DNA of 55,182 bases from an uncultured Oscillospiraceae bacterium (GCA_964446385.1 CAYUOH010000013.1:1-55182), one strand, 5' to 3'; shown: positions 1,939-53,828, counted from the stretch's first letter. Notes: generated by a model not told the origin, from the letters alone. Made by a program: numbers and translations.

Positions 1939-2182
1939 GTCCATACCATGTGAAGCATGCAATTTCGGGCCTCTTATTGTTAACCTGCTCCCCGAAAACA
2001 AAACCAATTGTGGAATGATGAGAAAAATTTCAGCTTATCTCTGAGTCTAAATAAAAGAAAAACAAAGGCACCCTACGTTTGATTTCGTAGAGAGCCTTTT
2101 TTTAGGGATATTCATTTACATCCCAAATCACGCTGGAATTGAATTCTACAGCAAATCTGTCCTCATTGACATTGACCTTGTG

Positions 2183-4192
2183 TTATTCCTGCGCCTGGGG
2201 CACCAGTTCACTAACATTTGCTTCCTTGTTTGTGTCCTGCTCAATTGTCTTCATTATGGATTCTTTAATACTTTGAACCCGGGCGTTCTCTTCCTTGTTC
2301 CCACTGTTGAAATTGACGCCGAGCTTTTCGCTGATCAAAAGCCCAAGAAGCATCTCAAAGGCATTCACAGAGCTGCCTTGTTCCTGTCCACCCATGTTGA
2401 CCACGGTCTTTGGGACAATGTCAATTTGTGATTTCTCGATGGCTGCGGTAAATTTGCTCATGACATCCTGCACGACCTGATACTGCGGTCCACCGTATGC
2501 GCGGACCTGCTCTTCGATGGCTATGGCCTTGCCTATGCCTACTCTTGCCTCGCGTTCAGCCTCAGCCTCGGCAATCGCCTTGATCTTTGATGCCTCCTGA
2601 AGAGATCTTTGAAAATCGGCCTTACCCTGGTTGCTCTGAATCTGAATATTGATATCCGATTCTGTAAGCAACCTTTGCTGCAGCGCCTTGGACTCGGCTT
2701 CTCTGAGTTCTTTTTCCTTGCCTGCGGCTTTTTCCTGCTGCGCATAGGTTTCTATTCGCTCAACGGCTATCTGTCTGTCGCGTAGCTGTGCAAGTATAAC
2801 TTCAATCTTGTTGTCATTGGAGGACGCGGAGGGTGTACCGATGAGCACTTCCTCGAGCTCCAGGTTGTAATGCGCAAACTTTGCCTTCATTTCGAGGGAC
2901 GAGGTATTTTGAATATCATTTCTTTCATGAATAAGCTGTATGAGCGTCTTTGTCTGGCCGATGTTTTTGAAATATGCGGAGACCATCGGGTCAAGCGTTT
3001 GATCAACGAGCTTCTTGATATCGCCGAAGCGCTGGATTACCAGAGGCGCTTTCTTGTAGTCAATATGCATGACCACGGAAAGCGGAAGCGACGGTTCGAA
3101 AGCATCCTTTGTGATAAGGCTGACTTCCCTAAGATTTTCGTCAAAATTATGCGAACCTGTCTGGTTGCTGATCCACTTGAGTATGATGTTCGTTGTCGGG
3201 ACCCTTATGATCATTCCGGAATAAGTATTGAAGGCATATTTACCCGGCATGAGCGGTTCACTCCAGACACCGCGGAAGCCCTTTTCGACAAGTTCACCGT
3301 GCTTATATTCGTCTCCTGTGGAGTCAACACCTTTTTCACCAATAAAAGATACAACCACACCGACAAATCCGACGTCGATAAGGGTCTTGTCGATGAATTC
3401 CACTGTCGCAAAAAATCTGTTGATAAAGTATGTACCTTCGACAAGCGTTTGATACTGTCTGCCACGGAATCCGCCCGCTTTGAGAAATTTCTCAGGATCC
3501 TGAAAATTGTTATGGTATGTTTCCGGATTGTCCGGGTTATCACCGACGGCAGGTGCGATAATATCCTGCCTGTTGAGTGAAAGACCGTCGTGGACTGTTA
3601 CGATTCCGACCTTATCATCACTGCCTTTGATAACGATAGGTCTGAAGCCGTCACGCTCCCTGAGTTGTTCCGCCATATTGATTATCGTAGACTCCTCAGA
3701 TTTTGTGCCCATAGGCAGATAGTAAATTCTGTCCTGTGTTATGATGACAAACTGCGCAAGATTAAATGCGTATGTACCTTCACGAACAATGCCGCGCTGG
3801 GGCCCTTTCTGGCCTCCGTTAAGTAAAAAAGCTTTGGCATTTTGAAAATTACTGCCTTCAGGGACGACTTTGCCCAGAGTCTGAATAGGTTCAAGAGGCC
3901 GTCCGTCCCGAGCGAAGACATAAGCGATCTGCCCTTGCGGCACAGTCACAAGCGGACAGAGGTGCACAATATACATTAGCGGAGACAGAAGATGCAGACC
4001 GCCTCTGATAATCTGTGGCTGGAAACCGGCTTCGCCATTAAGTGCGATGATCTGCTCGTTCAACGAGCCCTTTGTAGACCACCATTTTTCTACTATCGCA
4101 ATCTTGTTGTTAGGTACAATTCTTAGACCGATAAGCCAAAAGAATAGAACAATGCCGAAAACAATTGAAATTGTAAGCAACAAACCGTCCAT
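2183..4192 (-). CDS. flotillin-like SPFH/band-7 domain protein (YqiK/FloT-like), 669 aa
   Basis: N-terminal TM helix, SPFH domain, and a long Ala/Glu-rich coiled coil (AEAEAEREARVG...) typical of bacterial flotillins; AGGAGG SD 6 nt upstream of the ATG at 4192. Confidence 0.8.
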   Translation of the reverse strand: MDGLLLTISIVFGIVLFFWLIGLRIVPNNKIAIVEKWWSTKGSLNEQIIALNGEAGFQPQIIRGGLHLLSPLMYIVHLCPLVTVPQGQIAYVFARDGRPLEPIQTLGKVVPEGSNFQNAKAFLLNGGQKGPQRGIVREGTYAFNLAQFVIITQDRIYYLPMGTKSEESTIINMAEQLRERDGFRPIVIKGSDDKVGIVTVHDGLSLNRQDIIAPAVGDNPDNPETYHNNFQDPEKFLKAGGFRGRQYQTLVEGTYFINRFFATVEFIDKTLIDVGFVGVVVSFIGEKGVDSTGDEYKHGELVEKGFRGVWSEPLMPGKYAFNTYSGMIIRVPTTNIILKWISNQTGSHNFDENLREVSLITKDAFEPSLPLSVVMHIDYKKAPLVIQRFGDIKKLVDQTLDPMVSAYFKNIGQTKTLIQLIHERNDIQNTSSLEMKAKFAHYNLELEEVLIGTPSASSNDNKIEVILAQLRDRQIAVERIETYAQQEKAAGKEKELREAESKALQQRLLTESDINIQIQSNQGKADFQRSLQEASKIKAIAEAEAEREARVGIGKAIAIEEQVRAYGGPQYQVVQDVMSKFTAAIEKSQIDIVPKTVVNMGGQEQGSSVNAFEMLLGLLISEKLGVNFNSGNKEENARVQSIKESIMKTIEQDTNKEANVSELVPQAQE

Positions 4193-4482
4193 CGCGAACC
4201 TCCTAAAATATTTATTTGTCCCTTTGGTACAGCTGAATCATACGCTTTATTTATAGTACAGTCAATGTACGTTCATTAATGGCTGCGGAATTATTATTAA
4301 AGTTAATCCTGTTCGTCTTACTTTTTACGATAGCATCTAGAATCACATTGCTAAGCATTTCTTTTGATTTATATTTTGGATCTATTATTCAAATGAAGAG
4401 GATAAAGCACCAGAATATATTAATATTGCACAGATTAATTTGACATATAAGAAATATTTTATATATAATTCCGAAATATCCA

Positions 4483-4511
4483 TTGACATTCATAATAACA
4501 CATGCTACAAT
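4483..4511 (+). promoter_or_regulatory. sigma-A type promoter, TTGACA-17 nt-TACAAT
   Basis: Exact TTGACA at 4483-4488, 17-nt spacer, TACAAT at 4506-4511, in an AT-rich region about 350 nt upstream of ridA. Confidence 0.55.
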
Positions 4512-4670
4512 AAAAATGCTCCCCCAAAGGATAAAACCGAGTAGGTGAGTCGCCCCGGTAATCGGTAACGTGGTTTTAGAGCTTGAAACCTGCGAGGGCA
4601 ACACTCTATTACAAGGTTACAGCGGTCGTAGTTTTCGGATAGTTTTATGGTTATTCGGGAGTTGCGATCA

Positions 4671-4748
4671 ATGATTGGTTTCAGCACAATGATAGTAATA
4701 TCTGGATTGTGTAATATCAGATGGCTGAGCTTAGGGGTAGTAAAATAA
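4671..4748 (+). CDS. candidate 25-aa leader peptide MIGFSTMIVISGLCNIRWLSLGVVK (branched-chain rich)
   Basis: GGGAG SD 9 nt upstream; 10 of 25 residues are Ile/Val/Leu; lies between the promoter at 4483 and the intrinsic terminator at 4783, upstream of ridA. Speculative. Confidence 0.3.
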   Translation: MIGFSTMIVISGLCNIRWLSLGVVK

Positions 4749-4782
4749 GGAGAAGTGCACCATTGTTGTACGAACCTACTTA

Positions 4783-4832
4783 AGGGCACACCTTTTTCTA
4801 ATCAAATGGGTGTGCCCTAAGCTTTTTTGTTT
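4783..4832 (+). terminator. Rho-independent terminator / attenuator hairpin in the ridA leader
   Basis: 10-bp perfect stem AGGGCACACC...GGTGTGCCCT with a 16-nt loop, followed by AAGCTTTTTTGTTT; ends 35 nt before the ridA ATG. Confidence 0.7.
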
Positions 4833-4866
4833 ACTTGTCAGTATTGATTTTGAGGAGGTCAACTTT

Positions 4867-5238
4867 ATGGACAGTATATTTACACCAAATGCACCCGATC
4901 CAATCGGGCCGTATTCTCAGGCGATAAAAACTGGAAACATGCTTTTCTGTTCAGGACAGATAGCGATTATTCCGTCGAGCGGAAAACTGGCGGGAGAAGA
5001 TATAGAAACACAGACAAGGCAAATATGTGAAAATATCAAAAGCATCCTAAAAACTACTAATATGGACTTTAGGGATGTTGTTAAAGCCGTATGCTATTTG
5101 ACTTGTGCAGATGATTTTAAAAAATTCAATGACGTTTATGCCGAATACTTCGAATCTTCACCCGCGCGCTCGTGTGTGTTTGTTTCCGGTTTACCGAAGG
5201 GTGCAATAGTTGAAATTGAAGTAACTGCGAATAAATGA
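4867..5238 (+). CDS. ridA: RidA/YjgF family reactive enamine/imine deaminase
   Basis: MDSIFTPNAPDPIGPYSQAIKTGNMLFCSGQI is the canonical RidA N-terminus; GAGGAGG SD before the ATG at 4867. The ORF-track start at 4810 is upstream of the SD and unlikely. Confidence 0.85.
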   Translation: MDSIFTPNAPDPIGPYSQAIKTGNMLFCSGQIAIIPSSGKLAGEDIETQTRQICENIKSILKTTNMDFRDVVKAVCYLTCADDFKKFNDVYAEYFESSPARSCVFVSGLPKGAIVEIEVTANK

Positions 5239-5436
5239 AAAAGTAGAAAGTAGTAGGGATCAAATTCAAGTGTTTGGTAAATTAATCAAAATTATATACA
5301 CCGAAAACCCTGATAAATGATGTTGTAATAAAGACTGATAACTCATATAATTGAACAAATAAAAATATCAATGCAACACCGGAGACCCCAAGCAGTGCTC
5401 TGCATGTCCGTCCCGGATTTGATTTGCAGATACTTT

Positions 5437-5472
5437 AACTCCGCTGTGCTTACGGCGGAGTTTTGTGTTTTG
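5437..5472 (+). terminator. putative intrinsic terminator
   Basis: 8-bp stem AACTCCGC/GCGGAGTT with a 10-nt loop, followed by TTGTGTTTTGG. Confidence 0.4.
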
Positions 5473-5570
5473 GCAAATAAACTGAAGTCGACTATAACCG
5501 GAAATATCCATGAGCAAAATAAGACTTTCTGAAAATGACTTCAAAATCGTTGTTTCAAGGCGGTGATAAT

Positions 5571-6503
5571 ATGAATGAAATGAAGGAAGATTTAATCGCT
5601 CCATGCGGGATGAACTGCTCTTTATGCAGCGCTTATCAATTCGGAGAATATGATTTAAACAGACATGGGTTTCACAAAAAATACTGTTTAGGCTGCATTC
5701 CGAGGGGAGAAAACTGCACACATATGAGAGATGCGTGCGAATTGCTGGCAAAAGGTAGCATCCGTTTTTGTTATGAATGTAGAAGTTTCCCATGTAAAAG
5801 GCTGAAAGCATTGGATAAGCGATACTGCACGAAATACCATATGAGCATGATAGAAAACATCAACTACATCAAGGAATATGGAATTAAAAATTTCATAGAT
5901 AAGGAGCGTGACAAATGGCGCTGTCCGGAGTGCGGAGCGACCATATGCTGCCACAACGGACTATGTTTGAATTGTAATATAGATACGCTTATGACGAATA
6001 AAAAATACAGGTGGGAAACGGGTAAAAAACCGGAGACTGAAATTATGGAATCAACCAAGGAACAATTACTTAGAAATCCTGATACAGAGCCGACTAGCGA
6101 CGTTATTGCAGAGGCTCTTAAGGATGCAAATAACGTCTATATAAAGTTTATATCCGAACTTGCAAACCATGGTATTCAGATGGAATGGCGTTACTATAAC
6201 GACGGCAAGGCGTGGCTGGCAAAAGGACTTTATAAGTGGACAGGTGCAAGAGGAGGATATAAAGAAAATACTGTTTTTTGGTTATCGGTTTGGGACGGAT
6301 TTTTTAAAGTGGATATCTATTTCCCAGAAAAATCCCGTGCTGATGTATTGAGTCTACCGCTTGATCATAAGTTTAAACTTATTATAGCGGACTCAAAACA
6401 AATGGGGAAACTGAAATACTTCCCTCTTGTTTTTGAACTCTGTTCGGATGAAATGTTTAAGGCAGTTTTCCCACTTATTGATTTCAAGATAAGCTTAAAG
6501 TGA
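5571..6503 (+). CDS. DUF3795-like Cys-rich domain protein with a C-terminal extension
   Basis: Cys cluster CGMNCSLCSAY...CLGC...C..C..C matches the DUF3795 pattern and is shared with the 7405 paralog; AAGGCGG SD before the ATG at 5571. Confidence 0.6.
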   Translation: MNEMKEDLIAPCGMNCSLCSAYQFGEYDLNRHGFHKKYCLGCIPRGENCTHMRDACELLAKGSIRFCYECRSFPCKRLKALDKRYCTKYHMSMIENINYIKEYGIKNFIDKERDKWRCPECGATICCHNGLCLNCNIDTLMTNKKYRWETGKKPETEIMESTKEQLLRNPDTEPTSDVIAEALKDANNVYIKFISELANHGIQMEWRYYNDGKAWLAKGLYKWTGARGGYKENTVFWLSVWDGFFKVDIYFPEKSRADVLSLPLDHKFKLIIADSKQMGKLKYFPLVFELCSDEMFKAVFPLIDFKISLK

Positions 6504-6627
6504 TAGAATTGATTTAGAAGCTAAAAGAGTGAGAGCGGGAAAAACCAGTAAATTAATATTTCCATGTGCTCTATGTTTTGTTTCGTGATGGGATACCGGT
6601 TGTGGACAATGTAGTGAGGATAAAGAA

Positions 6628-7344
6628 ATGAAAAAATATCCGAGAACGGATAAATACGAAAAAAGTTGGATTAGTGAAAACTGGATGGGACCAAATCCGC
6701 TTTGGTTACTTGAGGAATTGTGCGAACACCTGGAATTAAAGCCAGGGATGAAGGTTCTTGACATGGGCTGCGGGAAAGGCATCACTTCAGTATTTCTAGC
6801 GAAAGAATTTGGCGTAACGGTATTTGCCAACGATCTGTGGATTGACCCGACGGAGAATTTTAAGCGCTTTGAGGAAGCCGGCGTAGCAGAATTGGTATTT
6901 CCTATCCATGCTGAAGCCCATACCCTCCCTTATGCAGAGGGTTTTTTTGATGTTGCAATATCAATAGACAGTTACCAATATTACGGAGCGGATGAACTGT
7001 ATTTTCCCTGTACATTTTCAAAGTTAGTAAAAAGCGGCGGTCAATTTGGCATCGTGGTTCCGGGTTTAAAGAAAGAATTTGAAAGAGGTTACCCTGATAC
7101 ACTTAAAAAACATTGGAATGGGGAGATGTTCAGCTTTCATAGCAAGAATTGGTGGCGTTTTCTTTGGGAAAAGACCGGAATTGCCGATATTATCGCATGT
7201 TATGATATTGAAGAACCTAAAGAATTATGGAAATCATGGGCAGAATGGGCAAAGGATAACCTCGGCTTTAACGATGTGGAATTTATAAATTCTGACAAAA
7301 ACGATGACATTGCTATTATTGTAATGAGTGCAATAAAAAAATAG
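6628..7344 (+). CDS. class I SAM-dependent methyltransferase
   Basis: Motif I VLDMGCGKG and downstream acidic motifs (FDVAISID) of Rossmann-fold methyltransferases. Confidence 0.75.
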   Translation: MKKYPRTDKYEKSWISENWMGPNPLWLLEELCEHLELKPGMKVLDMGCGKGITSVFLAKEFGVTVFANDLWIDPTENFKRFEEAGVAELVFPIHAEAHTLPYAEGFFDVAISIDSYQYYGADELYFPCTFSKLVKSGGQFGIVVPGLKKEFERGYPDTLKKHWNGEMFSFHSKNWWRFLWEKTGIADIIACYDIEEPKELWKSWAEWAKDNLGFNDVEFINSDKNDDIAIIVMSAIKK

Positions 7345-7404
7345 CCTGCTCCTCCGGAGTTATTTTTCAATATATATCATGACTATTTTTTACTGAGGTG
7401 AAAG

Positions 7405-7941
7405 ATGAAGAATTTCAACCGGCAAAATCCACTGTTTTCTCTTTGCGGTTTAAACTGCGGATTATGTTCTATGAAATTAGGCGGTTATTGTCCGGGGTGC
7501 GGACAGGGAAACAAGCCGTGCAAGGCTGCAAGATGCAGTATAGAGCATAATGTGGAATACTGTTTTCAATGCAATGAATACCCTTGCCCTATCTACGATC
7601 ATGCCGATGAATCTGATTCTTTTATAACGCACAGAAACCAAATGACTGATATGGAAAAGGCAAAACAAATCGGGATGGAAGCCTATAATGTAGAACAGAC
7701 GGAAAAAGTTGAGTTGTTGAATGTTTTACTATCGGAATATAATTCAGGCCGTGAAAAGACATTATATTGCCTTGCCGTAAATCTCCTTGAGGTTGATGAA
7801 ATTAAAAACGTACTGGAAAAAGGATCGGATTATTCTGAATTGACGGATATGTCCCTTAAAGAGAAAGCTGTCTATGTTTCAAATTATATACGTCAGTTAG
7901 CCCAAAAGAAAAATATAGAACTGAAACTTCGAAAGGTATAA
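7405..7941 (+). CDS. DUF3795-like Cys-rich domain protein (paralog of 5571-6503)
   Basis: LCGLNCGLCS...CPGC...C..C...CFQCNEYPC cysteine pattern parallels the upstream paralog. Confidence 0.6.
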   Translation: MKNFNRQNPLFSLCGLNCGLCSMKLGGYCPGCGQGNKPCKAARCSIEHNVEYCFQCNEYPCPIYDHADESDSFITHRNQMTDMEKAKQIGMEAYNVEQTEKVELLNVLLSEYNSGREKTLYCLAVNLLEVDEIKNVLEKGSDYSELTDMSLKEKAVYVSNYIRQLAQKKNIELKLRKV

Positions 7942-7985
7942 TTACTGTTTACTTAATATCTACTCGGCTCACAAGATGGCGAGCA

Positions 7986-8018
7986 CTAAACAAAGAAGGT
8001 GCCGGAATTAAATCCGGC
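7986..8018 (+). terminator. Rho-independent terminator
   Basis: 11-bp stem AAGGTGCCGGA/TCCGGCACCTT with a 6-nt loop, followed by a TTTTTT run. Confidence 0.7.
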
Positions 8019-8203
8019 ACCTTTTTTATATTCGAAATAAAGTCAGACGGGCACACTAGTGGAAAACAAATCTAATATATCGTGAATAATTATGATCATG
8101 CTGTTTTATAATTCTATATTTCAGTGTATTATTCTCAAGTAATCAACGTTATAATATATAGAATATATACTGCAATGATATTACCCGGGGATAGGTTATA
8201 AAC

Positions 8204-9610
8204 ATGGTTTTTAGCAGCATAACTTTTTTATTTTATTTTTTACCAGCATTATTCTTTTTATATTATCTGGCTCCCAAAAAGCTAAAAAACTTAATTATGA
8301 TAATCGGAAGCTTCGTGTTTTACGCATGGGGTGAAATAAGGTTTTTGCCGGTAATGCTGGCGTTGTCTGTCGAGGATTATATTTGCGGAAGACTTATGGA
8401 AAAAAACCGCGATAATGAAAAACGCAGGCGCCTGTTTATGCTGATATCGGTGATCAGCAATCTATCCGTATTGATTTTCTTTAAATATACAAATTTCTTT
8501 GTCGGTAATTTTTGTTCATTATTTGGAATTGAAAATATGGCGATCAATATAATACTCCCAATAGGAGTATCATTTAACTCATTTCAATCAATTTCTTATG
8601 CCATTGACGTATACAGGGGAACGACGAACTGCGAAAAAAGTTTCTATAATTACCTTACTTATACGACATTGTTTCCCCAGGTTATTGCCGGACCGATAGT
8701 TCGTTATGTAACGGTTGAAAACGATCTTGACGATCATAACATGACTGCTGACAGCCTTTCCCGCGGAATGCGCAGATTTATAATCGGCCTTGCAAAAAAG
8801 GTATTGATCGCGAATAATGTCGGCCTGCTTTGGAGCAATATATCATCAGGCGCTGCGGGTGAACCTTCCGTTTTACTGTACTGGCTTGGTATCACAGCCT
8901 ATTCCTTTCAGATATATTTTGATTTTTCGGGATATTCCGATATGGCAATCGGGCTTGCCCGTGTCTTCGGGCTTACTTTTGACGAAAACTTCAATTTCCC
9001 TTATATCGCAAAGAGTATAACCGAATTCTGGCGGCGCTGGCATATAACGTTAAGTTTATGGTTCCGCGACTATATATATATTCCGCTCGGTGGGAACCGC
9101 GTCTCGATAAAAAGACATATTCTTAATCTTCTTATTGTATGGGGGCTTACGGGTTTCTGGCACGGAGCTTCCTGGAATTTTGTCATATGGGGTCTGTATT
9201 TTGCGGTAATATTGATTTGCGAAAAATATTTTTTCATGAGTTTTCTGGAACGTTTACCGGCATTCCTTCGTCATATTTATACTATATTGCTTGTCATGAT
9301 AAGCTGGGTAATATTCTATTTTGAAGATATGGGCATGGTTATTGACTTTTTGAAGGGAATGTTCGGATTTAACGGGGTTCCCGCCCTTAACAGTCAATCG
9401 TTGTATTATTTGTTCGGTTACGGAATGATTTTTATTCTGGCGGCATATTTTTCCACCCCGCATTTCAGAAAAATAATCGATGCAACGGAAAAAAGCACAA
9501 GAAAATGGGTTTGGAGCGCGGCGACAGCGGTTTATATTTTAATATTCGTCTGCTGCATAGCTTATCTTGTAAACAGCACATATAATCCTTTTTTGTATTT
9601 CAGATTTTAG
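8204..9610 (+). CDS. MBOAT family membrane-bound O-acyltransferase (AlgI/DltB/PatA-like)
   Basis: Multi-TM protein with the FWRRWHITLSLWFRDYIYIPLGG motif containing the conserved MBOAT His; very AT-rich. Confidence 0.85.
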   Translation: MVFSSITFLFYFLPALFFLYYLAPKKLKNLIMIIGSFVFYAWGEIRFLPVMLALSVEDYICGRLMEKNRDNEKRRRLFMLISVISNLSVLIFFKYTNFFVGNFCSLFGIENMAINIILPIGVSFNSFQSISYAIDVYRGTTNCEKSFYNYLTYTTLFPQVIAGPIVRYVTVENDLDDHNMTADSLSRGMRRFIIGLAKKVLIANNVGLLWSNISSGAAGEPSVLLYWLGITAYSFQIYFDFSGYSDMAIGLARVFGLTFDENFNFPYIAKSITEFWRRWHITLSLWFRDYIYIPLGGNRVSIKRHILNLLIVWGLTGFWHGASWNFVIWGLYFAVILICEKYFFMSFLERLPAFLRHIYTILLVMISWVIFYFEDMGMVIDFLKGMFGFNGVPALNSQSLYYLFGYGMIFILAAYFSTPHFRKIIDATEKSTRKWVWSAATAVYILIFVCCIAYLVNSTYNPFLYFRF

Positions 9611-9620
9611 AGAGGCCTGC

Positions 9621-10748
9621 ATGAAAATTACCTTTAATAAAATATTCTTTTCGGTTTTTATATTGTTATGGTTTGCAGCCGTACTAATCAATATACTGAC
9701 TCCCTTTCGAAGTTACTCAGAAAACGAGAACAGATATTTTTCGAAAATCCCGGAATACAGCTTTGATACACTGATTAACGGGGAATTCATGAACAAGGTT
9801 AATGATTATGTAAATGACCAGTTTATCGCACGGGATAACTGGATAAGCGCCCAGAGCATGTTGGAATATTTCATCGGTAAACGTGAAAGCAATAACGTCT
9901 TTATATGCAAAGATTCTCTTATCGGTAAAATCGACGGACCCAATGAAGAATATATAAAGGATAATATAGCAGGCATATATGATTTTATTACTGCAACGGA
10001 AACGCCCGCAAGTCTTATGATAATCCCGGGCGCATCTGAAATACTGTCTCACAAACTTCCGTCGTTTGCCAGGGTTTGGGATCAGAAAGAGAAGATCGAT
10101 GAAATATATAATTCGATCAATTTCGCAAAATGTATTTCTGTCTATGAAACATTGTCAGATCACAAAGATGAGTATATCTATTACCGCACCGATCATCACT
10201 GGACGACATATGGCGCATACCTGGCATATACTGATTATTGCAATGCCTGTGGCTTAAGTCCGGCCGAATATGCCGCGGATAAAATAAGTAAGTCTTTTAA
10301 CGGCACTCTTTATTCGAGTTCCGGAGTAAGGTTTATTAATAGCGATACTATTGAAGCGTTTATCGTCGGATCCGATGCCTACTGCGATATTTTCGACGGA
10401 AATAATACACAACGATATGACAGCATATACTTCCCCGATTATCTTAATAAAAAGGATAAATACGCATATTTTCTGGGTACCAACCAGCCGGTTGTCACAG
10501 TATACGGAGATAATGTAAACGGACCCAGGCTGATTTTATTTAAAGATTCTTATGCTCATTGTATGGCACCGATGCTGCTTGAGCATTACAGTCAAATAAC
10601 TCTTGTCGATTTGCGGTATATTAACCGTCAGTTCGATTACTATTTTGACGTCAACGATTATGACGAAGCGTTGTTTTTATACAGTATTGATACTTTTGGC
10701 AATCAAAACGATATCAGTAAACTGAGCACCTATAAGAACGCGGATTGA
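9621..10748 (+). CDS. DHHW-motif family protein (AlgX/AlgJ/DltD-like partner of MBOAT)
   Basis: N-terminal signal-anchor, YRTDHHWTTYGAY (the DHHW signature); located immediately after the MBOAT gene. Confidence 0.75.
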   Translation: MKITFNKIFFSVFILLWFAAVLINILTPFRSYSENENRYFSKIPEYSFDTLINGEFMNKVNDYVNDQFIARDNWISAQSMLEYFIGKRESNNVFICKDSLIGKIDGPNEEYIKDNIAGIYDFITATETPASLMIIPGASEILSHKLPSFARVWDQKEKIDEIYNSINFAKCISVYETLSDHKDEYIYYRTDHHWTTYGAYLAYTDYCNACGLSPAEYAADKISKSFNGTLYSSSGVRFINSDTIEAFIVGSDAYCDIFDGNNTQRYDSIYFPDYLNKKDKYAYFLGTNQPVVTVYGDNVNGPRLILFKDSYAHCMAPMLLEHYSQITLVDLRYINRQFDYYFDVNDYDEALFLYSIDTFGNQNDISKLSTYKNAD

Positions 10749-12702: not shown

Positions 12703-14121
12703 TTAAAACCCCTCGCTGATTATCAGATTACCATTGCCTGCGAATTTCGATGCTGCATCATACTTATGCCAAATCTGATATGTCACGCTGTAACCCTTGC
12801 AGGTAATCTTTACTGTATATCTTGCAGTGGGATCGTAGGAGAACATTTGATTAACATCTATGGAGAGATGCGTTTTTCCACCTCCCAGATCATCGTTGAG
12901 ATTAAAATACTGAATTTGTGTGATATCTAGAGGTACACCATTTCTACTTACTTCATAATCATAACTCAGGTAATGATTATTGCTTTTGGTGCGAATGTAA
13001 ATACTATAATGCCCCAAATTTGGTTGATCAATTTCTTCTACTCCGCCAAAGATATGACAGCTTATAGATCTCATTTCTTCCACAGGCCCGACAACGACTA
13101 AATCGAAAGCCATCCCGTCCATGTTATCTTCAAATTTAGCGTACTGGGTTTCATCTACAAATACCTTTTTCAGAGACCTGCAATCAACAAGAGGTGCGAT
13201 ATCAACAATCTGCGTACCGCTAATACACAATTCTTTCAACCGTGAAAGATTTTCGATGCCGGAAATATCTCTGATGGGATTTCCTGTAAGATCTAAATAT
13301 TCAATGTTGCGCAGTACCCAGAGCGGGCTCGCATCGGTAATCAGATTCGCTGCGACAGTAAGTTCCTTTAAATTCTTCAGTTGTGAAAAGTCGCTAACGC
13401 TTTCGATGCTGCCAAAATGTGCAGTACTCTCATTTCCGTGAAAAAAAACGGCCGGATTCTTCTGATGGTTCTCGTAGTCTATCTCTGTCCCAATGAACGA
13501 AGTATCACTGCGTTGTTCATCCACGCTTTCCCCATAAAGATAGACATGCTCAATATCCGACATTCGTCCGGAATATCCTAATTTTGCGAGCAGTGAATCC
13601 TCAGATACTTTCGCTCCGACCTGCGTGGCGAGAACTACAGTGAACGCAACTGTGAGCAATATGACTCCGCTTAGCCCCCAGGTCGTCCAACTAGCCGCGC
13701 GTTTTTGAGCAGTAGTAACCTGAAGATTCCGCATAAGTGTGGAAAAGACAAGTTTGTCCAGAAAGGCTTCCTCGGAAGCACAATCATGCCGTAAAATCCC
13801 TTGCTGCGTATTTAGCAGCAATCGCTGCGTGGGCGTAAGGCTGACTGGAGCAATATGCACAACCAAGAGAGGATTATTCATCTGAACAGCATATGTGATA
13901 GTTCGGTTGACCTCGTAGTTTTCTAATGCTGCAGGCGATAAAAGGAGCAAAACAAGAGCAGACTTTTTGATACGCATTTTATCAAAACGTGTACTCGGCC
14001 AGACTTCATATCCCTTATCCCGTAAAGCCAAGAGCACCTTCATTACATATTCACTGTCTTCCGGTGCGAACATCGCATAGACAAACGGTTTGCCATTTCC
14101 AGAATAAGGTTTGAACTCCAT
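12703..14121 (-). CDS. membrane protein: N-terminal divergent TIR domain, 1 TM helix, C-terminal leucine-rich repeats plus a beta-rich domain (472 aa)
   Basis: The N-terminus PFVYAMFAPEDSEYVMKVLLALRDKGYEVW aligns to the TIR fold but the FISY/CE motifs are degenerate; TM at about aa 148-168; internalin-type LRRs (LKELTVAANLITDASPL..LDLTGNPIRDISGIENLSRLKELCISGTQIVDIAPL); AAGGAGG SD 12 nt after the upstream gene stop. Confidence 0.7.
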   Translation of the reverse strand: MEFKPYSGNGKPFVYAMFAPEDSEYVMKVLLALRDKGYEVWPSTRFDKMRIKKSALVLLLLSPAALENYEVNRTITYAVQMNNPLLVVHIAPVSLTPTQRLLLNTQQGILRHDCASEEAFLDKLVFSTLMRNLQVTTAQKRAASWTTWGLSGVILLTVAFTVVLATQVGAKVSEDSLLAKLGYSGRMSDIEHVYLYGESVDEQRSDTSFIGTEIDYENHQKNPAVFFHGNESTAHFGSIESVSDFSQLKNLKELTVAANLITDASPLWVLRNIEYLDLTGNPIRDISGIENLSRLKELCISGTQIVDIAPLVDCRSLKKVFVDETQYAKFEDNMDGMAFDLVVVGPVEEMRSISCHIFGGVEEIDQPNLGHYSIYIRTKSNNHYLSYDYEVSRNGVPLDITQIQYFNLNDDLGGGKTHLSIDVNQMFSYDPTARYTVKITCKGYSVTYQIWHKYDAASKFAGNGNLIISEGF

Positions 14122-14132
14122 ATTCTCCTCCT

Positions 14133-15269
14133 TTACTCGGTCACTACCACTTCAAAGTTACCGGTAATTATATCCGAAACATAAGGCACCATATCAAGGC
14201 TTACATAGAGTTTCTGTAAGCCCGTCATTTCCAGAGCAGGTGATAAATCTGTAATACCGGTGTGTGAGAGTTTTAGAACTGAGATATTGTCCAAACCGGA
14301 AAGAGGCATCAAATCCTTAACATCATTACCGGAAAGATCAAGGTATGTTAGTTTGGTAAGATTCTGTAGCGCCGTCAAATCAGTAATGTTTTGATAACAG
14401 ATCGCCAGCTCATTGAGATTGATCAGTTTGGAAATGGCGGTCAGGTCGGAGATATCGCCACGCTGCACCGCTGTACCGCCGACGCAAAATGCGCCGTTCT
14501 GATAATCGATTCCGCTGCGAGTGGTTACAAACGCGTTTCCGCAACAGTAGAGAGCTTCACCGCTAGTCTGAGAGATAATAAGATCACGCATCATCGTACT
14601 GGACCAGGTGGTCATCTCAATGATCTGTGCGCTTTCTTCCGAATTGCCCGGGGTGACGGCCAAAGTCGTCGTGGTTAATCCGGGTTTCTCGCCAAACCAG
14701 CCGCGCATATATCCCAACAGTGCAACGCCGAATACTACAGCCAACGCGATACCGACTATTCCGACGATCAATGCTGTGTTCAGGTGTTTGGGGTTTGGAT
14801 CACGCTCAATTTCATAGCCTTCCTTGCCGTCTCCGATCAGTTCATTTTGCAACGCACCGGATTGAATGAGCCTTTCTGCGGTATCAGCAGCTATGCTACC
14901 CGCAGTAATATTTGTCGCGGGCGAAAGCTGCATCTTCATTCCCGGTGGCATCGGTGCGTCGTCCATGCACACACATGCCATCGTCTTTTTCGCATCAACG
15001 GCGAAATTGATTTCCCGCTCGCAGTTACGGTTTGTGTTGAAATTTTCTGACGGAAAGAATAGCACGACGGTAGCGTTTTCAAGATGATTGGCGATAAACT
15101 CTGCCCAGCGTGCGCCCGCCTCGATGCCTTCGTCGTACCAGACACGATATCCGCGTTTGTGTAGTTCCTCCGCAATCGGTAACACCGCAACGCTGTCCAC
15201 GTGTGCATAGCTGATAAAAATGAATGGTTTTTCTCCGCGGTAGACCGGAAACCTCGCTCTTGAAGCCAT
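14133..15269 (-). CDS. membrane protein: N-terminal canonical TIR domain, 1 TM helix, C-terminal leucine-rich repeats (378 aa)
   Basis: KPFIFISYAHVD...RVWYDEGIEAGARW...NCEREINFAV are the classic bacterial TIR motifs, including the putative catalytic Glu; TM IVGIVGIALAVVFGVALLGY; LRRs LTKLTYLDLSGNDVKDLMPLSGLDNISVLKLSHTGITDL. Confidence 0.8.
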   Translation of the reverse strand: MASRARFPVYRGEKPFIFISYAHVDSVAVLPIAEELHKRGYRVWYDEGIEAGARWAEFIANHLENATVVLFFPSENFNTNRNCEREINFAVDAKKTMACVCMDDAPMPPGMKMQLSPATNITAGSIAADTAERLIQSGALQNELIGDGKEGYEIERDPNPKHLNTALIVGIVGIALAVVFGVALLGYMRGWFGEKPGLTTTTLAVTPGNSEESAQIIEMTTWSSTMMRDLIISQTSGEALYCCGNAFVTTRSGIDYQNGAFCVGGTAVQRGDISDLTAISKLINLNELAICYQNITDLTALQNLTKLTYLDLSGNDVKDLMPLSGLDNISVLKLSHTGITDLSPALEMTGLQKLYVSLDMVPYVSDIITGNFEVVVTE

Positions 15270-15465
15270 TTTCCTTTACCTCAATATTATTAAAATCCTG
15301 TATATGATTGTCAATGGCTGAACAGATATGATATTGCATTCCACGGTGTAACCAAGTACATCATTTCAGAAGCGATATGTGCTCGCTCTGCTTTATGCAG
15401 ACATTCCACGAGTCTACCATAGCGTGCGTATATTTTTAATACTATTATATCTAGAAAAACTTATA

Positions 15466-15494
15466 ATTGAAAGGGTTGCACTTTAATGCTATAT
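15466..15494 (+). promoter_or_regulatory. candidate sigma-A promoter TTGAAA-17-TATATT for the HD/RyR operon
   Basis: Hexamers with a 17-nt spacer about 95 nt upstream of the start at 15590, in the divergent intergenic region. Confidence 0.35.
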
Positions 15495-15589
15495 TTCTGT
15501 TAAAAGAAATATTCACTTTTATGGTAGCTGAATAATAATCGTTATGTATTAATGTGGCACTAACCCGCAATAAGGAAGGAGTTCGAGAA

Positions 15590-17617
15590 ATGAGTTATCG
15601 CGCGCTCAATAATATGCGAAATAAGAATCTTGATAAGTATCATTTGGAACACACAGTCCGAATTCCCCCTTTACCTGAGACAAAACGGAATTATGGCAAA
15701 GAGGCACTGCTTTTTATCCGCGACTGCTGTGAAGACCTAAAATTTGACTATAGTACAGAATCACGCAGATCTTTTTCCGATTCTGACGGCAGAAGCGCCG
15801 GGAAAAACCAGATTCCATACAACATGGAGCGTGACCTGGATCGCCTCAGTTTTGAAGTGGCAATCGGGCGGTTTCTCTCCTCCGGTTCAAAGGAGGACGC
15901 ATTTGATATCTATTATTGCTACTGCGAGATTTTCAAGCCGTTTGGCACAGGTTATGATTCCACGGGGTTACTGCTGGAACTTTTGAGCGAGCACGAATCC
16001 AATGCAAGTTCGCTTCTTATGAAGCATCGTGACCATTATTCTCACAGCGTATATGTTTTCCTTATCGGGCTTGTCATCTACAAGAATCTATCTTCATTTC
16101 GGACAGCTTACAACAGTAAGTACGGATTTAAGGACAGCAAAGAAGCCTCGTGCCATTTTCTTGAGTATTGGGGACTAACCTCTCTGTTTCACGATGTCGG
16201 ATATCCCTTTGAAATCGCGCATCAACAGATGAAATCTTATGTATGCAAACTGGATTCGAATAACAACGACGCCTTCGGTTTTTCACCATATGTGTCATAC
16301 CGTAATGTAGACGAGTTTGCGTTATCCAGGCTCGGCGATTTAAACGATTTTTACGCAAAAGCTATCATCGAACGCCTTTGCGAGGGTTACCTAAGCCACA
16401 CGGACATCGAACCCTATTATGCAGAGCACCAGCTTCAAAAGGCCCTGAAGGATCGCGCGATCCATGAAAATCCGACAGAAAAGGATTACCTCTACATGGA
16501 TCACGCTTATTTCAGTGGACTAATTATGGCAAAGACCTATCTCAAGCGACACAAGGAAATTGACCGCTATGAAATGTTGCCGCCTGCGGTGCTGGATGCG
16601 TTATGTGCCATAATTCTGCATAACAGCCTGTTTAAATTTACCATGCGCTCTTTTTTACACACGCAGGAACCTCTGCGCCTCTCCGACGGGCAGCCCCTCT
16701 GTTACCTGCTGATGTTTTGCGATGAGTTGCAGTGTTGGGACAGAACCTCCTATGGGCAGAACAGCCGAAATGGTATTTACGCGTTTGATTTTGATCTGGA
16801 GTTTACGCGTGACGGAATGCGCTGGATTTACTATTATGACCAAAGTTACGAAAGAAAGGTATTGAATGCGAAGTCATACGCCGACATGCTCTATGATGGG
16901 TATAGGAAAAAAACAGGCGCAGTGCGGAACGGTCGCAGCAGGTTTGTGGACGACATAGATGAAATCACCTTCATCCGAGACATCGTTACAGCATTTGAAC
17001 CGAATGTGAATACGCCAGATCCCAGTGCAATTATAGAAACTCGTATCGAAAAAAAGCAGAAGCGCACGGGACTGTATCTTTCTGATAGCAATTATCTCAA
17101 CCTATATTCTTTTGCCCTCGCTCTTAACGGGCGCTACGCAGGTGCCAAAACTGTAGAGCAAATGAAAACAGCCTTTGAAGAAAACCTGTCGCTTGAATAT
17201 AAACTTTCCAATATTGCGCAAGCAAAGGGATTTGCCGCGCAGTTGGAGTCAATCGACTGTTTTTATACCGACCGAGCGGTTGATTATTTACCCGTGACCG
17301 ATTTTCATGCGCTTACACAGGAAAGGGGACACGAGAACGACCTTATGAAAATAGCCGTTGCGGAGCATGAACGCTGGTGCAAAGAGAAGTGCGCAATGGG
17401 TTGGGATTACGGCACCGCTCATGTTGAAGCTGACATACTGCCCGACGGCAGTAAAATGAACGACAACGAAATGCGCGAGCGCACAAGGCTGCACCACGAC
17501 ATAACTGACTTTGACCATCTGGATGCGCAGGAGCATTTTAAGGACTCCGATCCGATGGAACATATGCTGGAGTTGATTCGAGAATACGACGGGCTGACCA
17601 TTTATCGCACCGAATGA
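15590..17617 (+). CDS. HD-domain phosphohydrolase fused to a C-terminal RyR (ryanodine-receptor-type) domain, 675 aa
   Basis: HD signature H(RDHYSHS)...LFHDVGYP...D; C-terminus AEHERWCKEKCAMGWDYG...HHDITDFDHLDAQEH matches the RyR-domain consensus (HE.W...GW.YG). AAGGAAGGA SD before the ATG at 15590; the ORF-track start at 15554 is less likely. Confidence 0.7.
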   Translation: MSYRALNNMRNKNLDKYHLEHTVRIPPLPETKRNYGKEALLFIRDCCEDLKFDYSTESRRSFSDSDGRSAGKNQIPYNMERDLDRLSFEVAIGRFLSSGSKEDAFDIYYCYCEIFKPFGTGYDSTGLLLELLSEHESNASSLLMKHRDHYSHSVYVFLIGLVIYKNLSSFRTAYNSKYGFKDSKEASCHFLEYWGLTSLFHDVGYPFEIAHQQMKSYVCKLDSNNNDAFGFSPYVSYRNVDEFALSRLGDLNDFYAKAIIERLCEGYLSHTDIEPYYAEHQLQKALKDRAIHENPTEKDYLYMDHAYFSGLIMAKTYLKRHKEIDRYEMLPPAVLDALCAIILHNSLFKFTMRSFLHTQEPLRLSDGQPLCYLLMFCDELQCWDRTSYGQNSRNGIYAFDFDLEFTRDGMRWIYYYDQSYERKVLNAKSYADMLYDGYRKKTGAVRNGRSRFVDDIDEITFIRDIVTAFEPNVNTPDPSAIIETRIEKKQKRTGLYLSDSNYLNLYSFALALNGRYAGAKTVEQMKTAFEENLSLEYKLSNIAQAKGFAAQLESIDCFYTDRAVDYLPVTDFHALTQERGHENDLMKIAVAEHERWCKEKCAMGWDYGTAHVEADILPDGSKMNDNEMRERTRLHHDITDFDHLDAQEHFKDSDPMEHMLELIREYDGLTIYRTE

Positions 17618-17671
17618 TTTTCTGAATTTAATATAAATCCCTCTGTAAATGCGCTGTAGAAAGGAGTATGT

Positions 17672-19318
17672 GTGGGCATCCCGATTGTTGTCGGCGTAAC
17701 CGGCCATCGCTCACTGCGAACGCAAGATCTTTCGATGCTGCGCGCAGTTGTTTCAGCACAGTTGGAAAAGTTGATTGTTTCATACCCGAATTCCCAGTTT
17801 GTCATGTTGAATTCTATTGCATCCGGCGCGGATACTCTCTGCGCAATGGTCGCACTGGAACTGGGAATACGGCTGATTTGCCCGTTACCTATGCCGATTG
17901 AAGAGTATCGCAAAGATTTTACCGGCACGGACGCGACTTCATTTGATGCGCTGATTCTGCAGGCCGAGCGCCTTTTTGTTGTACCTGATAACGGTTTGTC
18001 TCCAAATCTTACGAGGGATGAGCATTATATGAACTCAGGCAGATACATCGCAAGGCACAGCTGCCTGCTTCTTGCTCTTTGGGACGGAATGCCCGCTAAA
18101 CCGGACGGTTGTGGAACGGCGGAGACTGTATCTTTTATGCTCGGTGCCAGCGACGAAGCGACTACCGGCTGCCTTAAAGCAGCGAACAATGGCGCGGTTC
18201 TCCACATATATACGCCTAAGCAAGGAGAAGAGTGCGAATTACAAAATCCATCTGTCCGTCTTCTGGAAAACGTACCGGGCTGTCTGAAAAACACGCTGGA
18301 GACAATAGATACATTCAACACAGATACAAGGAGAATAGCCAGCGACGTTAAAAAGACTGAGCCGCTCATAACAAAGGGTATCCTTTCCGAGATGCCGGAA
18401 GACATACAGCAGCTTCATGAGGTATATCAGACGTCAGATAGCCTGTCACTTCGGTTTCAGGCAAGATACTTACATGCGATCCGATATTTATCTATATTCG
18501 GCGCGATGCTGGTGCTATTTTTCCTACTCTACGACGAAATGGAGAGTAATTTGTTTTTAATTTTATACGGGCTGCTGATCCTGTTTTATGTGCTGACTTT
18601 CGTGAGAATTCGTAAAAGCCAAGCGCATGAAAAGTACCTTCGTTACCGTATGCTCTCCGAAACGCTTCGCGTGCAATTTTTTCTCTGCGCAGCCGGATCA
18701 AACGACAATGTAGCTGACGAATTTACCTGGACACAGAAGCAGGAAACTGCATGGATTAAGCAGACCATTTCGGCGCTGCTTATCGGTGAATCAGCAAGGC
18801 AATCGCTACCCGATGAAACGATTAATAAATTGTGGATTGAAGGTCAGCTTTCTTATCATGAAAGTGCATATCGTCGCTCCTTCGGTCAGCAACATATCCG
18901 TGAGACCACCGCAAATTGGGTGCTTGCTGCTACCTTTGCTCTCTTTATCCTTGTATTAGTGCTGGAGTTCACGTTTGATTCTGCCATGACAAAGACGCTG
19001 TTCCGGAAACCTTTCCCGCCTCTTATGCTCTATCACAGCGGACAAACGGTCACTCTCCGAAACCTTATGAAAATACTGCTCGGCACGGTTTCGGCTATAG
19101 CCGTGTTTTTCACTAATTATTACGGAAAACTCTCCTTGGGCAGAAAGAGTATCGACCATAACCGTATGGCTCACCTGTATGCCTCGGCGAAGGAACAGTA
19201 TGCATCCCAAAAAAATGATTACATGTCTCTTTTCATCGCGCTTGCACGCGAGGAGATCATCGAGATCGGCAACTGGTTTTCCTATAGCCGAGAGAATGCG
19301 CCTTCTTTTCAGATATGA
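17672..19318 (+). CDS. SLOG-like (LOG/DprA/YpsA-type Rossmannoid) N-domain fused to a C-terminal multi-TM (SLATT-like) region, 548 aa
   Basis: GTG start 5 nt after an AAGGAG SD; N-terminus IVVGVTGHR...SGADTLCAMVALELG...DGCGTAETV resembles the LOG-family GGxGTxxE and DprA GxD..AH motifs; four predicted TM helices after aa 250. Confidence 0.5.
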   Translation: MGIPIVVGVTGHRSLRTQDLSMLRAVVSAQLEKLIVSYPNSQFVMLNSIASGADTLCAMVALELGIRLICPLPMPIEEYRKDFTGTDATSFDALILQAERLFVVPDNGLSPNLTRDEHYMNSGRYIARHSCLLLALWDGMPAKPDGCGTAETVSFMLGASDEATTGCLKAANNGAVLHIYTPKQGEECELQNPSVRLLENVPGCLKNTLETIDTFNTDTRRIASDVKKTEPLITKGILSEMPEDIQQLHEVYQTSDSLSLRFQARYLHAIRYLSIFGAMLVLFFLLYDEMESNLFLILYGLLILFYVLTFVRIRKSQAHEKYLRYRMLSETLRVQFFLCAAGSNDNVADEFTWTQKQETAWIKQTISALLIGESARQSLPDETINKLWIEGQLSYHESAYRRSFGQQHIRETTANWVLAATFALFILVLVLEFTFDSAMTKTLFRKPFPPLMLYHSGQTVTLRNLMKILLGTVSAIAVFFTNYYGKLSLGRKSIDHNRMAHLYASAKEQYASQKNDYMSLFIALAREEIIEIGNWFSYSRENAPSFQI

Positions 19319-42111: not shown

Positions 42112-42346
42112 GGTAAACACAACTGAATACCGGTCGATATATATCGAATGATATGGTTTTGAAGTCTCTACCCGGCTACCGTAAATTGCCGGACTATCGA
42201 CACATTTATGCGCGGTGAGTTTTATTTTTCACCGGCGAATGTTTTTTTGATGGGTGGAGCTTTCAAAGTTCCGCCTTATTTGTTTTCACTGCCGCCCTAT
42301 ACGGTATGAAAAATATAAGTTCACTATAAATAGGAAGGAAAACAAA

Positions 42347-53700: not shown

Positions 53701-53780
53701 ATTGCACCGCTCTTTTCTGTTTGTTCTGATAAATTTAGTTTAGGTTCTGCGGGGACGGATGTCAAGAAATCCGTGGACAG

Positions 53781-53814
53781 AAAAAGGTCAGCCCCTTGCG
53801 GGACTGACCTTTTG
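53781..53814. terminator. bidirectional Rho-independent terminator downstream of rbr
   Basis: AAAAA-GGTCAGCCCC-ttgc-GGGACTGACC-TTTT (9 of 10 bp stem). Confidence 0.6.
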
Positions 53815-53828
53815 AAATCACAGAACAA

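Follow-up and report, generated by a model that had tools for sequence, protein, structure and literature searches.

A membrane-centred TIR, SLOG and RyR locus in an uncultured Oscillospiraceae bacterium, probably an undescribed variant of Thoeris-like signalling

Among published Thoeris types, the nearest known match to the locus described here is a putative and unverified one, in which an effector of the class 'SLOG and 4TM' (a SLOG domain with four transmembrane, TM, segments) is encoded beside a TIR gene, as listed in Tables S1/S2 of the preprint that reports it (Yirmiya et al., 2025; bioRxiv 10.64898/2025.12.03.692087). Our locus occupies positions 12703-19318 of a 55,182-nt stretch of DNA (hereafter the window) from an uncultured Oscillospiraceae bacterium (GCA_964446385.1, CAYUOH010000013.1:1-55182) and encodes four proteins: two membrane-anchored TIR proteins (P1 and P2), a protein that joins an HD/phosphodiesterase (PDE)-like domain to a RyR domain (P3) and a protein with the 'SLOG and 4TM' architecture (P4). 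Two 'SLOG and 4TM' two-gene operons from Streptomyces and Nitrospira, likened to P4 by architecture only, gave no phage defence in Escherichia coli (Yirmiya et al., 2025).

A survey of bacterial TIR defence reported that the hallmarks of Toll-like receptors (TLRs)—membrane anchoring, leucine-rich repeats (LRRs) and heteromeric pairing—seem to be missing there (PMC11350192). All three are present in the family described here. Detection would then take place at the cell surface, ahead of genome entry or in its absence, and none of the Thoeris descriptions that we consulted includes sensing of that kind. RyR/R12 domains were tied to the binding or cleavage of cyclic ADP-ribose (cADPR) isomers only in 2026, and only for phage anti-defence proteins (PMC13232231). 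A host RyR enzyme, fused to a PDE-like HD domain within a TIR operon, would provide an experimental route to the cellular role of this domain and to the question of a direct action of cADPR-type ligands on RyR repeat domains.

The gene set recurs in many genomes and is probably an undescribed variant of Thoeris-like TIR signalling; on balance, we read the locus as a membrane-centred, Thoeris-like nucleotide-signalling system with four parts. A preliminary description of this DNA had proposed a Thoeris-like locus outside the described types, a claim that stands for the TIR receptors and the HD-RyR protein and fails for the remaining component, as 'SLOG and 4TM' beside TIR is already listed, if only as a putative type, in the parts of the preprint we could consult (Yirmiya et al., 2025). 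In those same parts of its text and supplement, RyR, HD/phosphodiesterase, LRR and membrane-anchored TIR partners are not mentioned, and our literature search found no host HD-RyR component, no membrane TIR-LRR or TIR-β-propeller receptors and no pairing of catalytic with non-catalytic TIRs.

Four co-conserved genes and their products

The four long open reading frames (ORFs) lie in two divergent units at the coordinates first proposed for them: P1 (12703-14121, 472 aa) and P2 (14133-15269, 378 aa) on the minus strand, P3 (15590-17617, 675 aa) and P4 (17672-19318, 548 aa) on the plus strand. The P3 ORF opens at a GTG at 15554 (687 aa); its start is most likely the ATG at 15590, as in the database gene call (P0121).

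Relatives of P4 are encoded in 434 species-level genomes, from which 80 loci were fetched, and the counts of gene presence and absence refer to the 46 that extend 6 kb or more on each side. TIR genes were detected with a hidden Markov model (HMM) approach based on eight seeds and were checked against Pfam. Most fetched loci come from metagenome-assembled genomes (MAGs) of Clostridia, the others from Smithella, Leptolinea, Eggerthellaceae, Sumerlaeota and Methanobrevibacter; the nearest relatives of the locus in the window are Clostridia genomes. Of the 46 loci, 39 (85%) had a TIR gene no more than 10 kb from the P4 homologue and 34 (74%) had a P3 homologue, with both in 28 and neither in one, so that the co-conservation of TIR, HD/RyR and SLOG-TM genes anticipated in the preliminary description is borne out. 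The modal number of TIR genes per locus was three. The gap between the P4 homologue and the nearest TIR gene had a median of 40 nt; the two were no more than 3 kb apart in 52 of 55 cases and shared a strand in 50 of 55. P3 ran in the same direction as P4 in 42 of 43 loci, directly neighboured it in at least 25 and overlapped its start in eight.

Gene order differs between loci while gene content stays, and the sensor genes come in many forms: TIR-TM-LRR, TIR-like-TM-giant LRR (900-1,290 aa), TIR-TM-WD40/β-propeller, TIR-FHA-PP2C and TIR-DUF5050 proteins, as well as kinase-TPR-WD40, kinase-TM-LRR and DUF4062-NACHT-WD40 proteins. The Pfam check found TIR-WD40 or TIR-β-propeller proteins in three loci, and some loci hold three to six receptor paralogues with very different ectodomains. 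The distribution extends over Clostridia, Chloroflexi, Actinobacteria, Deltaproteobacteria, plasmids of Betaproteobacteria, methanogens and Crenarchaeota, and includes a trio of SLOG-4TM, TIR and WD40 genes, without P3, on a plasmid of Caballeronia (Betaproteobacteria). A gene content that stays constant through such reshuffling of order and sensors is a strong argument that the genes work as one system. That the four genes are neighbours by chance is hardly credible: the window alone would allow it, with its two divergent units that no database names as a system, but the co-occurrence and operon tightness seen in dozens of distant genomes, in variable gene order, contradict it. The domain identities, the conserved residues and this genomic coupling are established.

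The composition of individual loci varies further. In the 41 with full-length P3 and P4, the identity of P3 to the window protein falls into tiers of 58-80%, 35-39% and 24-27% that do not follow P4 identity (33-59%), a mismatch which suggests that modules have been exchanged between lineages. Handles of the form L001 denote fetched loci with P4 relatives or related genes. Two loci (L080:449-2167 and L063:957-2675, both on the plus strand) encode Ser/Thr kinase-TM-LRR proteins (TM at aa ~267-287) beside TIR-TM-LRR genes, with a topology that resembles an inverted plant LRR receptor kinase. In a Smithella MAG (L002), genes for a TIR-FHA-PP2C protein (4680-6452) and a Ser/Thr kinase-TPR-WD40 protein (6483-9827) stand between the P3 and P4 homologues and suggest phospho-regulated variants of the system. 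A Peptococcaceae MAG scored as TIR-free by our HMMs (L011:3794-8014, plus strand) encodes, directly upstream of P3-P4, a 1,406-aa DUF4062(TIR-like)-NACHT-WD40 STAND protein, which is a cytoplasmic, NLR-like sensor variant. An unannotated 699-aa protein adjoining P4 in L024 was considered as a divergent P3 and rejected (hhalign probability 0.2).

That P1 and P2 are tandem TIR proteins, each with a TM helix and LRRs, is agreed by Pfam, NCBIfam and hydropathy: Pfam TIR_2 matches P1 at 6.5e-7 and P2 at 2.7e-19, LRR_4 matches them at 7.4e-19 and 1.2e-9, internalin-like LRR models of NCBIfam match both, and a single strong hydrophobic helix separates TIR from LRR in each. In P2, the TIR_2 match spans aa ~14-135 (14865-15230, minus strand, as for all P1 and P2 features), the TM helix aa 167-185 (14715-14771; hydropathy 2.98 over a 19-residue window) and the LRR region, matched by LRR_4/LRR_8 and internalin models and predicted to be extracellular, aa ~268-367 (14169-14468). 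In P1, the corresponding segments are a TIR-like domain at aa ~12-124 (13750-14088), a TM helix recognised by hydropathy at aa 150-168 (13618-13674) and an LRR region, likewise predicted to be extracellular, at aa ~239-330 (13132-13407), followed by a C-terminal ectodomain of ~140 aa (aa ~331-472, 12706-13131) that matches no family and is absent from P2.

Since the TIR is N-terminal, a signal peptide is lacking and the TM helix is single, the LRRs should be extracellular. The 'inverted TLR' arrangement put forward for these two proteins is indeed present and is general too: a TM helix follows the TIR in 121 of 134 TIR(-like) proteins from related loci and is followed in turn by an LRR or β-propeller region. 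HMM drift was considered for the TIR matches in LRR proteins of 900-1,290 aa and rejected; the matches are real because they are always N-terminal, with the single TM helix ~25 residues on.

The two proteins differ at the catalytic position. The candidate catalytic glutamate of P2 (E86, codon 15012-15014, motif NCEREI) aligns with that of the AbTir-type structure 7uxr, where P1 has T74. Across an alignment of 134 TIR(-like) domains from related loci, this glutamate is kept in 26 of 26 proteins of the P2-like size class (about 340-460 aa), while the remaining paralogues mostly have Ala, Thr, Arg or Gly. Each locus thus combines one enzyme-type TIR with several non-catalytic TIR-like partners. 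We propose P2, whose TIR looks catalytic by sequence, as the signal-generating enzyme, and P1, which is probably not an enzyme because the glutamate is lost, as a co-receptor or adaptor with a degenerate TIR-like domain.

In many bacterial TIR systems the effector is the TIR domain itself, acting as an NADase, and the same could apply here, with P1 and P2 depleting NAD+ and with P3 and P4 unrelated to signalling or acting only as modulators; Yirmiya et al. (2025) raise such a reading for their own unverified types. We consider it very unlikely for this locus, as it leaves unexplained both the loss of the glutamate from most TIR paralogues and the co-conservation with TIR of two domains predicted to bind ADP-ribose (ADPR)-type ligands, the YpsA-like SLOG domain of P4 and the RyR/R12 domain of P3.

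P1 is orthologous to ~471-aa tandem paralogues in two Christensenellaceae loci, L026 and L028 (46-47% identity), where four or five P1-type genes stand in a row (L026:713-8234 and L028:1397-7230). The paralogues are 85-93% identical in their cytoplasmic part and ~40% identical in their ectodomain. Positive selection on the ectodomains was considered and rejected: the ratio of non-synonymous to synonymous substitution rates (dN/dS) is ~0.2-0.3 in both halves, and the contrast in identity reflects synonymous divergence (dS): the cytoplasmic part has values of 0.16-0.23, the ectodomain values from 2.4 up to saturation. This dS contrast makes the paralogues mosaics of a recently homogenised or shared signalling module and old, diverse ectodomains; it indicates gene conversion or cassette shuffling or exchange, and fits a receptor repertoire.

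P4 begins with a SLOG domain (aa 1-~200, 17672-18271, plus strand), recognised by conserved motifs and structural matches. Pfam gave no SLOG match in P4, a sequence profile search of PDB with P4 found nothing, and neither HD nor SLOG domains emerged when the window proteins were scanned with Pfam, PADLOC and NCBIfam. An AlphaFold model built from a 38-member family alignment is confident (pLDDT 88, pTM 0.87) and has the Rossmannoid SLOG fold; the top structural matches of its N-domain are YpsA, DprA and LOG proteins. As no ThsA entry appears among the top 50-60 PDB matches, the domain falls on the YpsA/DprA side of the superfamily and not on the ThsA (STALD) side. A SLOG-like N-domain, the point on which the preliminary description had staked its reading, is thus supported by structure comparison, and the kinship to ThsA that it suggested is not. 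Invariant or near-invariant motifs across the 38 members are GxTGHR, S-x-A-x-G52-A-D54, WDG and G146-C-G-T-A-E151. They include, with invariant G52 and D54, the GxD/E substrate-binding signature defined for YpsA (G53/E55; PMC6459960), and SLOG domains that sense cADPR have been placed in the YpsA-like clade (PMC9503650).

The C-terminal half of P4, the predicted multi-TM region, consists of long helices with four hydrophobic or amphipathic membrane-spanning segments, according to the model and hydropathy. Its first 2-TM module (aa ~243-340, 18398-18691, plus strand; TM 269-287 and 293-311) is DUF4231/SLATT_3-like, and its second (aa ~381-541, 18812-19294, plus strand; TM 417-435 and a weaker helix at ~462-486) is SLATT_1/SLATT_4-like and carries a conserved C-terminal helix, EEIIExGNWxSY. 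For P4 itself, matches stay below the cut-offs (SLATT_3 23 bits, 6.6e-5, cut-off 45; SLATT_4 15 bits; DUF4231 14.5 bits). At family level, DUF4231 matches 7 of 38 members (best 1.3e-6) and YAcAr 6 of 38, SLATT_3 also matches, an archaeal member matches DUF4231 and SLATT_1, and the Caballeronia homologue (hhalign probability 99.3%, E = 1.7e-20) reaches 30.9 bits to DUF4231, above its cut-off of 24.7. On these family matches and the four TM segments, the SLOG domain of P4 would precede two 2-TM modules that are probably of SLATT type, with which the helical layout of the model is compatible. SLATT proteins are membrane effectors for which gating by nucleotides is known or predicted, and we propose that P4 is a signal-gated membrane effector.

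An exhaustive profile search placed 10,043 representative clusters (50% identity) in the P4 family at E <= 1e-3. The names looked up for it were only "hypothetical protein" or "DUF4231 domain-containing protein", and distant full-length relatives in Rhodoferax and Saccharolobus all lack names. A role for P4 would annotate many genomes. A 163-aa stand-alone relative of the P4 SLOG domain, with no TM part, is encoded on a plasmid of Streptomyces sp. HUAS 15-9 (L084, 5992-6483) with no annotated TIR neighbour, and on Rhizobium plasmids DUF1273(YpsA)-type relatives adjoin caspase-family genes.

P3 comprises an HD/PDE-like phosphohydrolase domain (aa ~77-381 in P0121 numbering, 15818-16732, plus strand), a middle β/α region and a C-terminal RyR (R12-type) domain (aa ~560-675, 17267-17614, plus strand) with a predicted pocket for an ADPR-derived nucleotide. 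Its proposed identity as an HD-phosphohydrolase/RyR protein holds on three counts: the all-α HD/PDE fold, an invariant H...HD...(H)...D metal-binding motif and the match of the family profile to RyR3 repeat-domain structures (E = 3.7e-5 over the C-terminal ~115 residues). The family is well conserved and numbers 1,903 homologues, many with precomputed PF02026 matches; P3 alone scores 20.8 bits to the Pfam RyR model, under the 27.4 cut-off. Residues invariant in 29 of 29 family members are H146, D148, H149, H152, H201-D202, H211, H292, D304-H305, H344-N345 and D378-E379, and these cover all candidate metal ligands of the HD domain. In the RyR domain, the residues of note are E592-H593-x-x-W596, G604-W605, H635 and K651-D652, with H593 and H635 kept in 28 of 29 members, W596 in 29 of 29 and D652 in 23 of 29 (Asn in five); the HxxW..GW motif is present in 43 of 43 full-length homologues from the fetched loci.

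The phage protein RyDEP binds 2'/3'cADPR and cleaves its ribose-ribose bond, with H75/D117 as catalytic dyad, W78 stacking on the adenine and H100 touching the phosphates, while other phage homologues act as sponges (PMC13232231). At motif level, H75 and D117 correspond to H593 and D652 of P3, which also keeps motifs that match the other contacts (W596 and H635). P3 may be a signal hydrolase. A fairly unlikely alternative makes P3 a second signal-activated effector, in which RyR senses the TIR product and HD destroys nucleotides or nucleic acids. Such an arrangement would parallel the SLOG→SLATT order of P4. CBASS, Thoeris and type III CRISPR systems as a rule fuse a sensor to an effector, which on general grounds favours a second effector; moreover, P3 and P4 form the tightest gene pair, in a few loci without a nearby TIR, and six of eight tested phage RyR homologues bound 2'/3'cADPR while none cleaved it (PMC13232231). 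Against this stand the equivalents of the RyDEP dyad, H593 and D652, which are largely kept, and the many TIR-P4 loci without P3, which suit an accessory regulator. The role of signal hydrolase is only slightly ahead of that of second effector.

A proposed pathway and the evidence for an immune role

If the locus is the four-part signalling system that we favour, its topology, ligand, chemistry and outcome would be as follows. P1 and P2 would sit in the membrane with their TIR domains in the cytoplasm and their LRRs on the cell surface, where a ligand—our leading guess is a phage particle or other foreign surface structure—would gather the TIR domains. P2 would be the enzyme, and P1, whose ectodomain is larger and has diverged further, would lend ligand specificity as a co-receptor or adaptor. 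TIR NADases are active only upon assembly; once assembled, P2 would turn NAD+ into an ADPR-derived messenger, on family knowledge one of the cADPR-isomer type. The YpsA-like SLOG domain of P4 would bind this messenger, and its two SLATT-type modules would then open or oligomerise, permeabilising or depolarising the membrane and leading to growth arrest or death. Control would fall to P3, whose RyR/R12 domain would bind the same messenger and may linearise it as RyDEP does, and whose HD/PDE domain would then cut a phosphoester or pyrophosphate bond, setting the activation threshold and ending the signal.

Several points weigh against this pathway. Every step is drawn from sequence and family knowledge, and the extracellular placement of the LRRs follows from topology logic. 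An enzyme that degrades the signal from within the system is without precedent in the Thoeris types whose descriptions we consulted. The SLATT and RyR scores of P4 and P3 themselves lie below curated thresholds, about 5 of the 46 loci have P3-P4 without a TIR within 10 kb, 11 of the 46 have TIR-P4 without P3, and the two published two-gene operons gave no defence. PADLOC and NCBIfam recognised no known system at the locus: the TIR matches were weak and generic (ThsB at E >= 2e-4; ThcB4 at 23.7 bits, cut-off 220), and the Thoeris models in these collections gave no effector match. Nor did we find a defence-island context in the window or around related loci, where housekeeping genes make up most of the 148 nearest neighbours from outside the system, with few generic PADLOC matches and no integrases or transposases among their frequent families.

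This setting is one reason to weigh a different purpose for the same chemistry, namely a physiological second-messenger pathway in which the receptors would sense an environmental, host or envelope cue, P4 would be a non-lethal ligand-gated channel like TRPM2 and P3 a resetting phosphodiesterase as in cyclase/PDE pairs. The genes around the locus in the window, like those 148, are of housekeeping, envelope and transport kinds: one flank holds MBOAT, DHHW, an undecaprenyl-phosphate translocase-like gene and PAP2, and the other Usp, PHO4 and PhoU_div, the last marking a chromosomal site shared with L001. A PDE-like enzyme within an operon is typical of homeostatic signalling, and the failure of the published 'SLOG and 4TM' operons to defend against phages points the same way. 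We nevertheless judge a physiological role unlikely. Most of what is known of TIR, YpsA-like SLOG, SLATT and bacterial or viral RyR domains comes from conflict systems, the distribution is patchy across distant phyla, plasmids and archaea, the repertoires of three to six receptor paralogues draw on freely swapped sensor modules, and one copy lies at a prophage edge. From these same features—the conflict pedigree of the four domain families, the patchy spread, the receptor repertoires, the module swapping and the prophage-edge copy—we infer an immune ('conflict') role.

A phage origin of the locus genes was considered and set aside, as the INPHARED phage database and scans of viral contigs gave little sign of one. 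P4 had no match in INPHARED, and P3, which we did not find on plasmids, had a single phage-database match, an unverified virome contig from human faeces (L081; MT836912.1, 'UNVERIFIED Bacteriophage sp.'; 8.3 kb). There, a 774-aa P3-family protein (2081-4405; hhalign E = 3e-110) directly precedes a 703-aa TIR protein (4398-6509), and the 511-aa protein upstream has no Pfam match. The viral-contig scans yielded no P3 relative and one P4 relative (L085; IMG/VR UViG_3300048836_000958, 1-2577, 2782-4257 and 5246-8129), in which, after a P4 that is 75% identical to ours and the end of a P3 gene, there come a TIR-DUF5050 gene in convergent orientation, a pair of large serine recombinases and an NlpC/P60 gene. 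This cluster lies at the edge of a predicted prophage and is either host flank or prophage cargo.

Layout and composition of the window

The two units of the locus are separated by a spacer of 284-320 nt, a divergent intergenic control region (15270-15589) that holds the region's two best σ70-like promoter matches, one per direction. On consensus match only, these are TTGACA-17-AATAAT on the minus strand (15314..15286) and TTGAAA-17-TATATT with an extended TG on the plus strand (15467..15495). No RNA features were found inside the locus and no tRNA genes in the window, whose sole Rfam match is a purine riboswitch aptamer (RF00167) at 42115-42216 (plus strand, 73.5 bits).

Guanine-plus-cytosine (GC) content is 0.43-0.48 in the locus, near the ~0.45 of the whole window, and 0.37-0.39 in the left flank; the early remark that the locus matches its host in GC while flanking DNA is richer in AT agrees with these values, as does every domain assignment made at that stage with the content of the four proteins. 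Against the mean of ~0.45, GC peaks lie at 29001-30000 (0.548) and 53001-54000 (0.534).

Comparison with described TIR systems

With Thoeris systems in general the locus shares a TIR protein with a catalytic glutamate (P2) and an adjacent, co-conserved effector with a nucleotide-sensing domain (P4). The nearest of them remains the 'SLOG and 4TM' class, whose effectors are predicted to answer a TIR-made signal and with which P4 shares its architecture and its place beside a TIR gene; the proteobacterial homologue from Caballeronia likewise adjoins a TIR gene. The TIR partners of the effectors IMG 2691454910 and 2862473379 show only generic similarity to the TIRs here, and the Nitrospira TIR used as a query returned short contigs only. 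The SLOG-SLATT association was reportedly anticipated in 2015 by Burroughs and colleagues, who defined both domains and may have described part of this neighbourhood. Given that the two-gene constructs were negative in E. coli, the three- or four-component make-up and the Clostridia kin of the locus may guide future tests.

Type VII Thoeris likewise pairs a TIR generator with a SLATT-type membrane effector, ThsH, and uses a cADPR signal; ThsH has no SLOG domain, takes its ligand in pockets between SLATT protomers and is thought to oligomerise on binding, whereas P4 adds a YpsA-like SLOG sensor and has two SLATT-like modules, its own SLATT scores being sub-threshold. Type III Thoeris (van den Berg, 2024, as described in PMC13276650 and the Yirmiya preprint) likewise has several TIRs and a SLOG domain on the DprA/YpsA side. 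P4, however, matches no NCBIfam type III effector model, P2 reaches only 23.7 bits to ThcB4 (cut-off 220), and, relative to the parts of those type III descriptions that we could consult, the TM-LRR anchoring of the TIRs, the SLATT module and the HD-RyR protein are extra here. With type I Thoeris (ThsB TIR and ThsA SIR2-SLOG) the locus would share its logic, a TIR-made cADPR isomer read by an effector-fused SLOG domain; it differs in having no SIR2 match, a SLOG domain of another clade, an effector embedded in the membrane and membrane receptors as sensors.

P3 and RyDEP (Lopez Rivera et al., 2026; PMC13232231) belong to the same RyR/R12 family (PF02026) and share ligand-contact residues. RyDEP is a small, phage-encoded anti-defence protein, in contrast to P3, which is encoded by the host within a TIR operon, carries a large fused HD/PDE domain and has an activity predicted from sequence. 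If the TLR-like reading set out below holds, P3 would be the first enzyme known to end the signal from within a Thoeris-like pathway.

P2 and P1 share their three modules with animal TLRs, although the order is inverted (TIR-TM-LRR), and pair a catalytic-type TIR with a non-catalytic one. The TIR domains of TLRs are scaffolds, not enzymes; the N-terminal position of the TIR and the catalytic type of that in P2 set these proteins apart from Toll-like receptors, and the likeness is one of analogy only. A bacterial counterpart of TLR sensing, in which surface LRR/β-propeller repertoires would detect phages or foreign structures and heteromeric TIRs would pass a cADPR-type messenger to a SLOG-gated effector and a host RyR phosphodiesterase, is a tentative idea that we doubt rather more than we believe.

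In animals, the SARM1 TIR and TRPM2, with its SLOG-like N-terminal domain, take part in cADPR/ADPR signalling. The trio of TIR, SLOG-membrane effector and RyR found here mirrors the animal components SARM1, TRPM2 and RyR R12, although the TM part of P4 is SLATT-like, not a TRP channel, and there is no sign of direct descent. If the TLR-like reading is true, one prokaryotic operon would unite the TIR (SARM1), SLOG-linked channel (TRPM2) and RyR R12 modules of animals.

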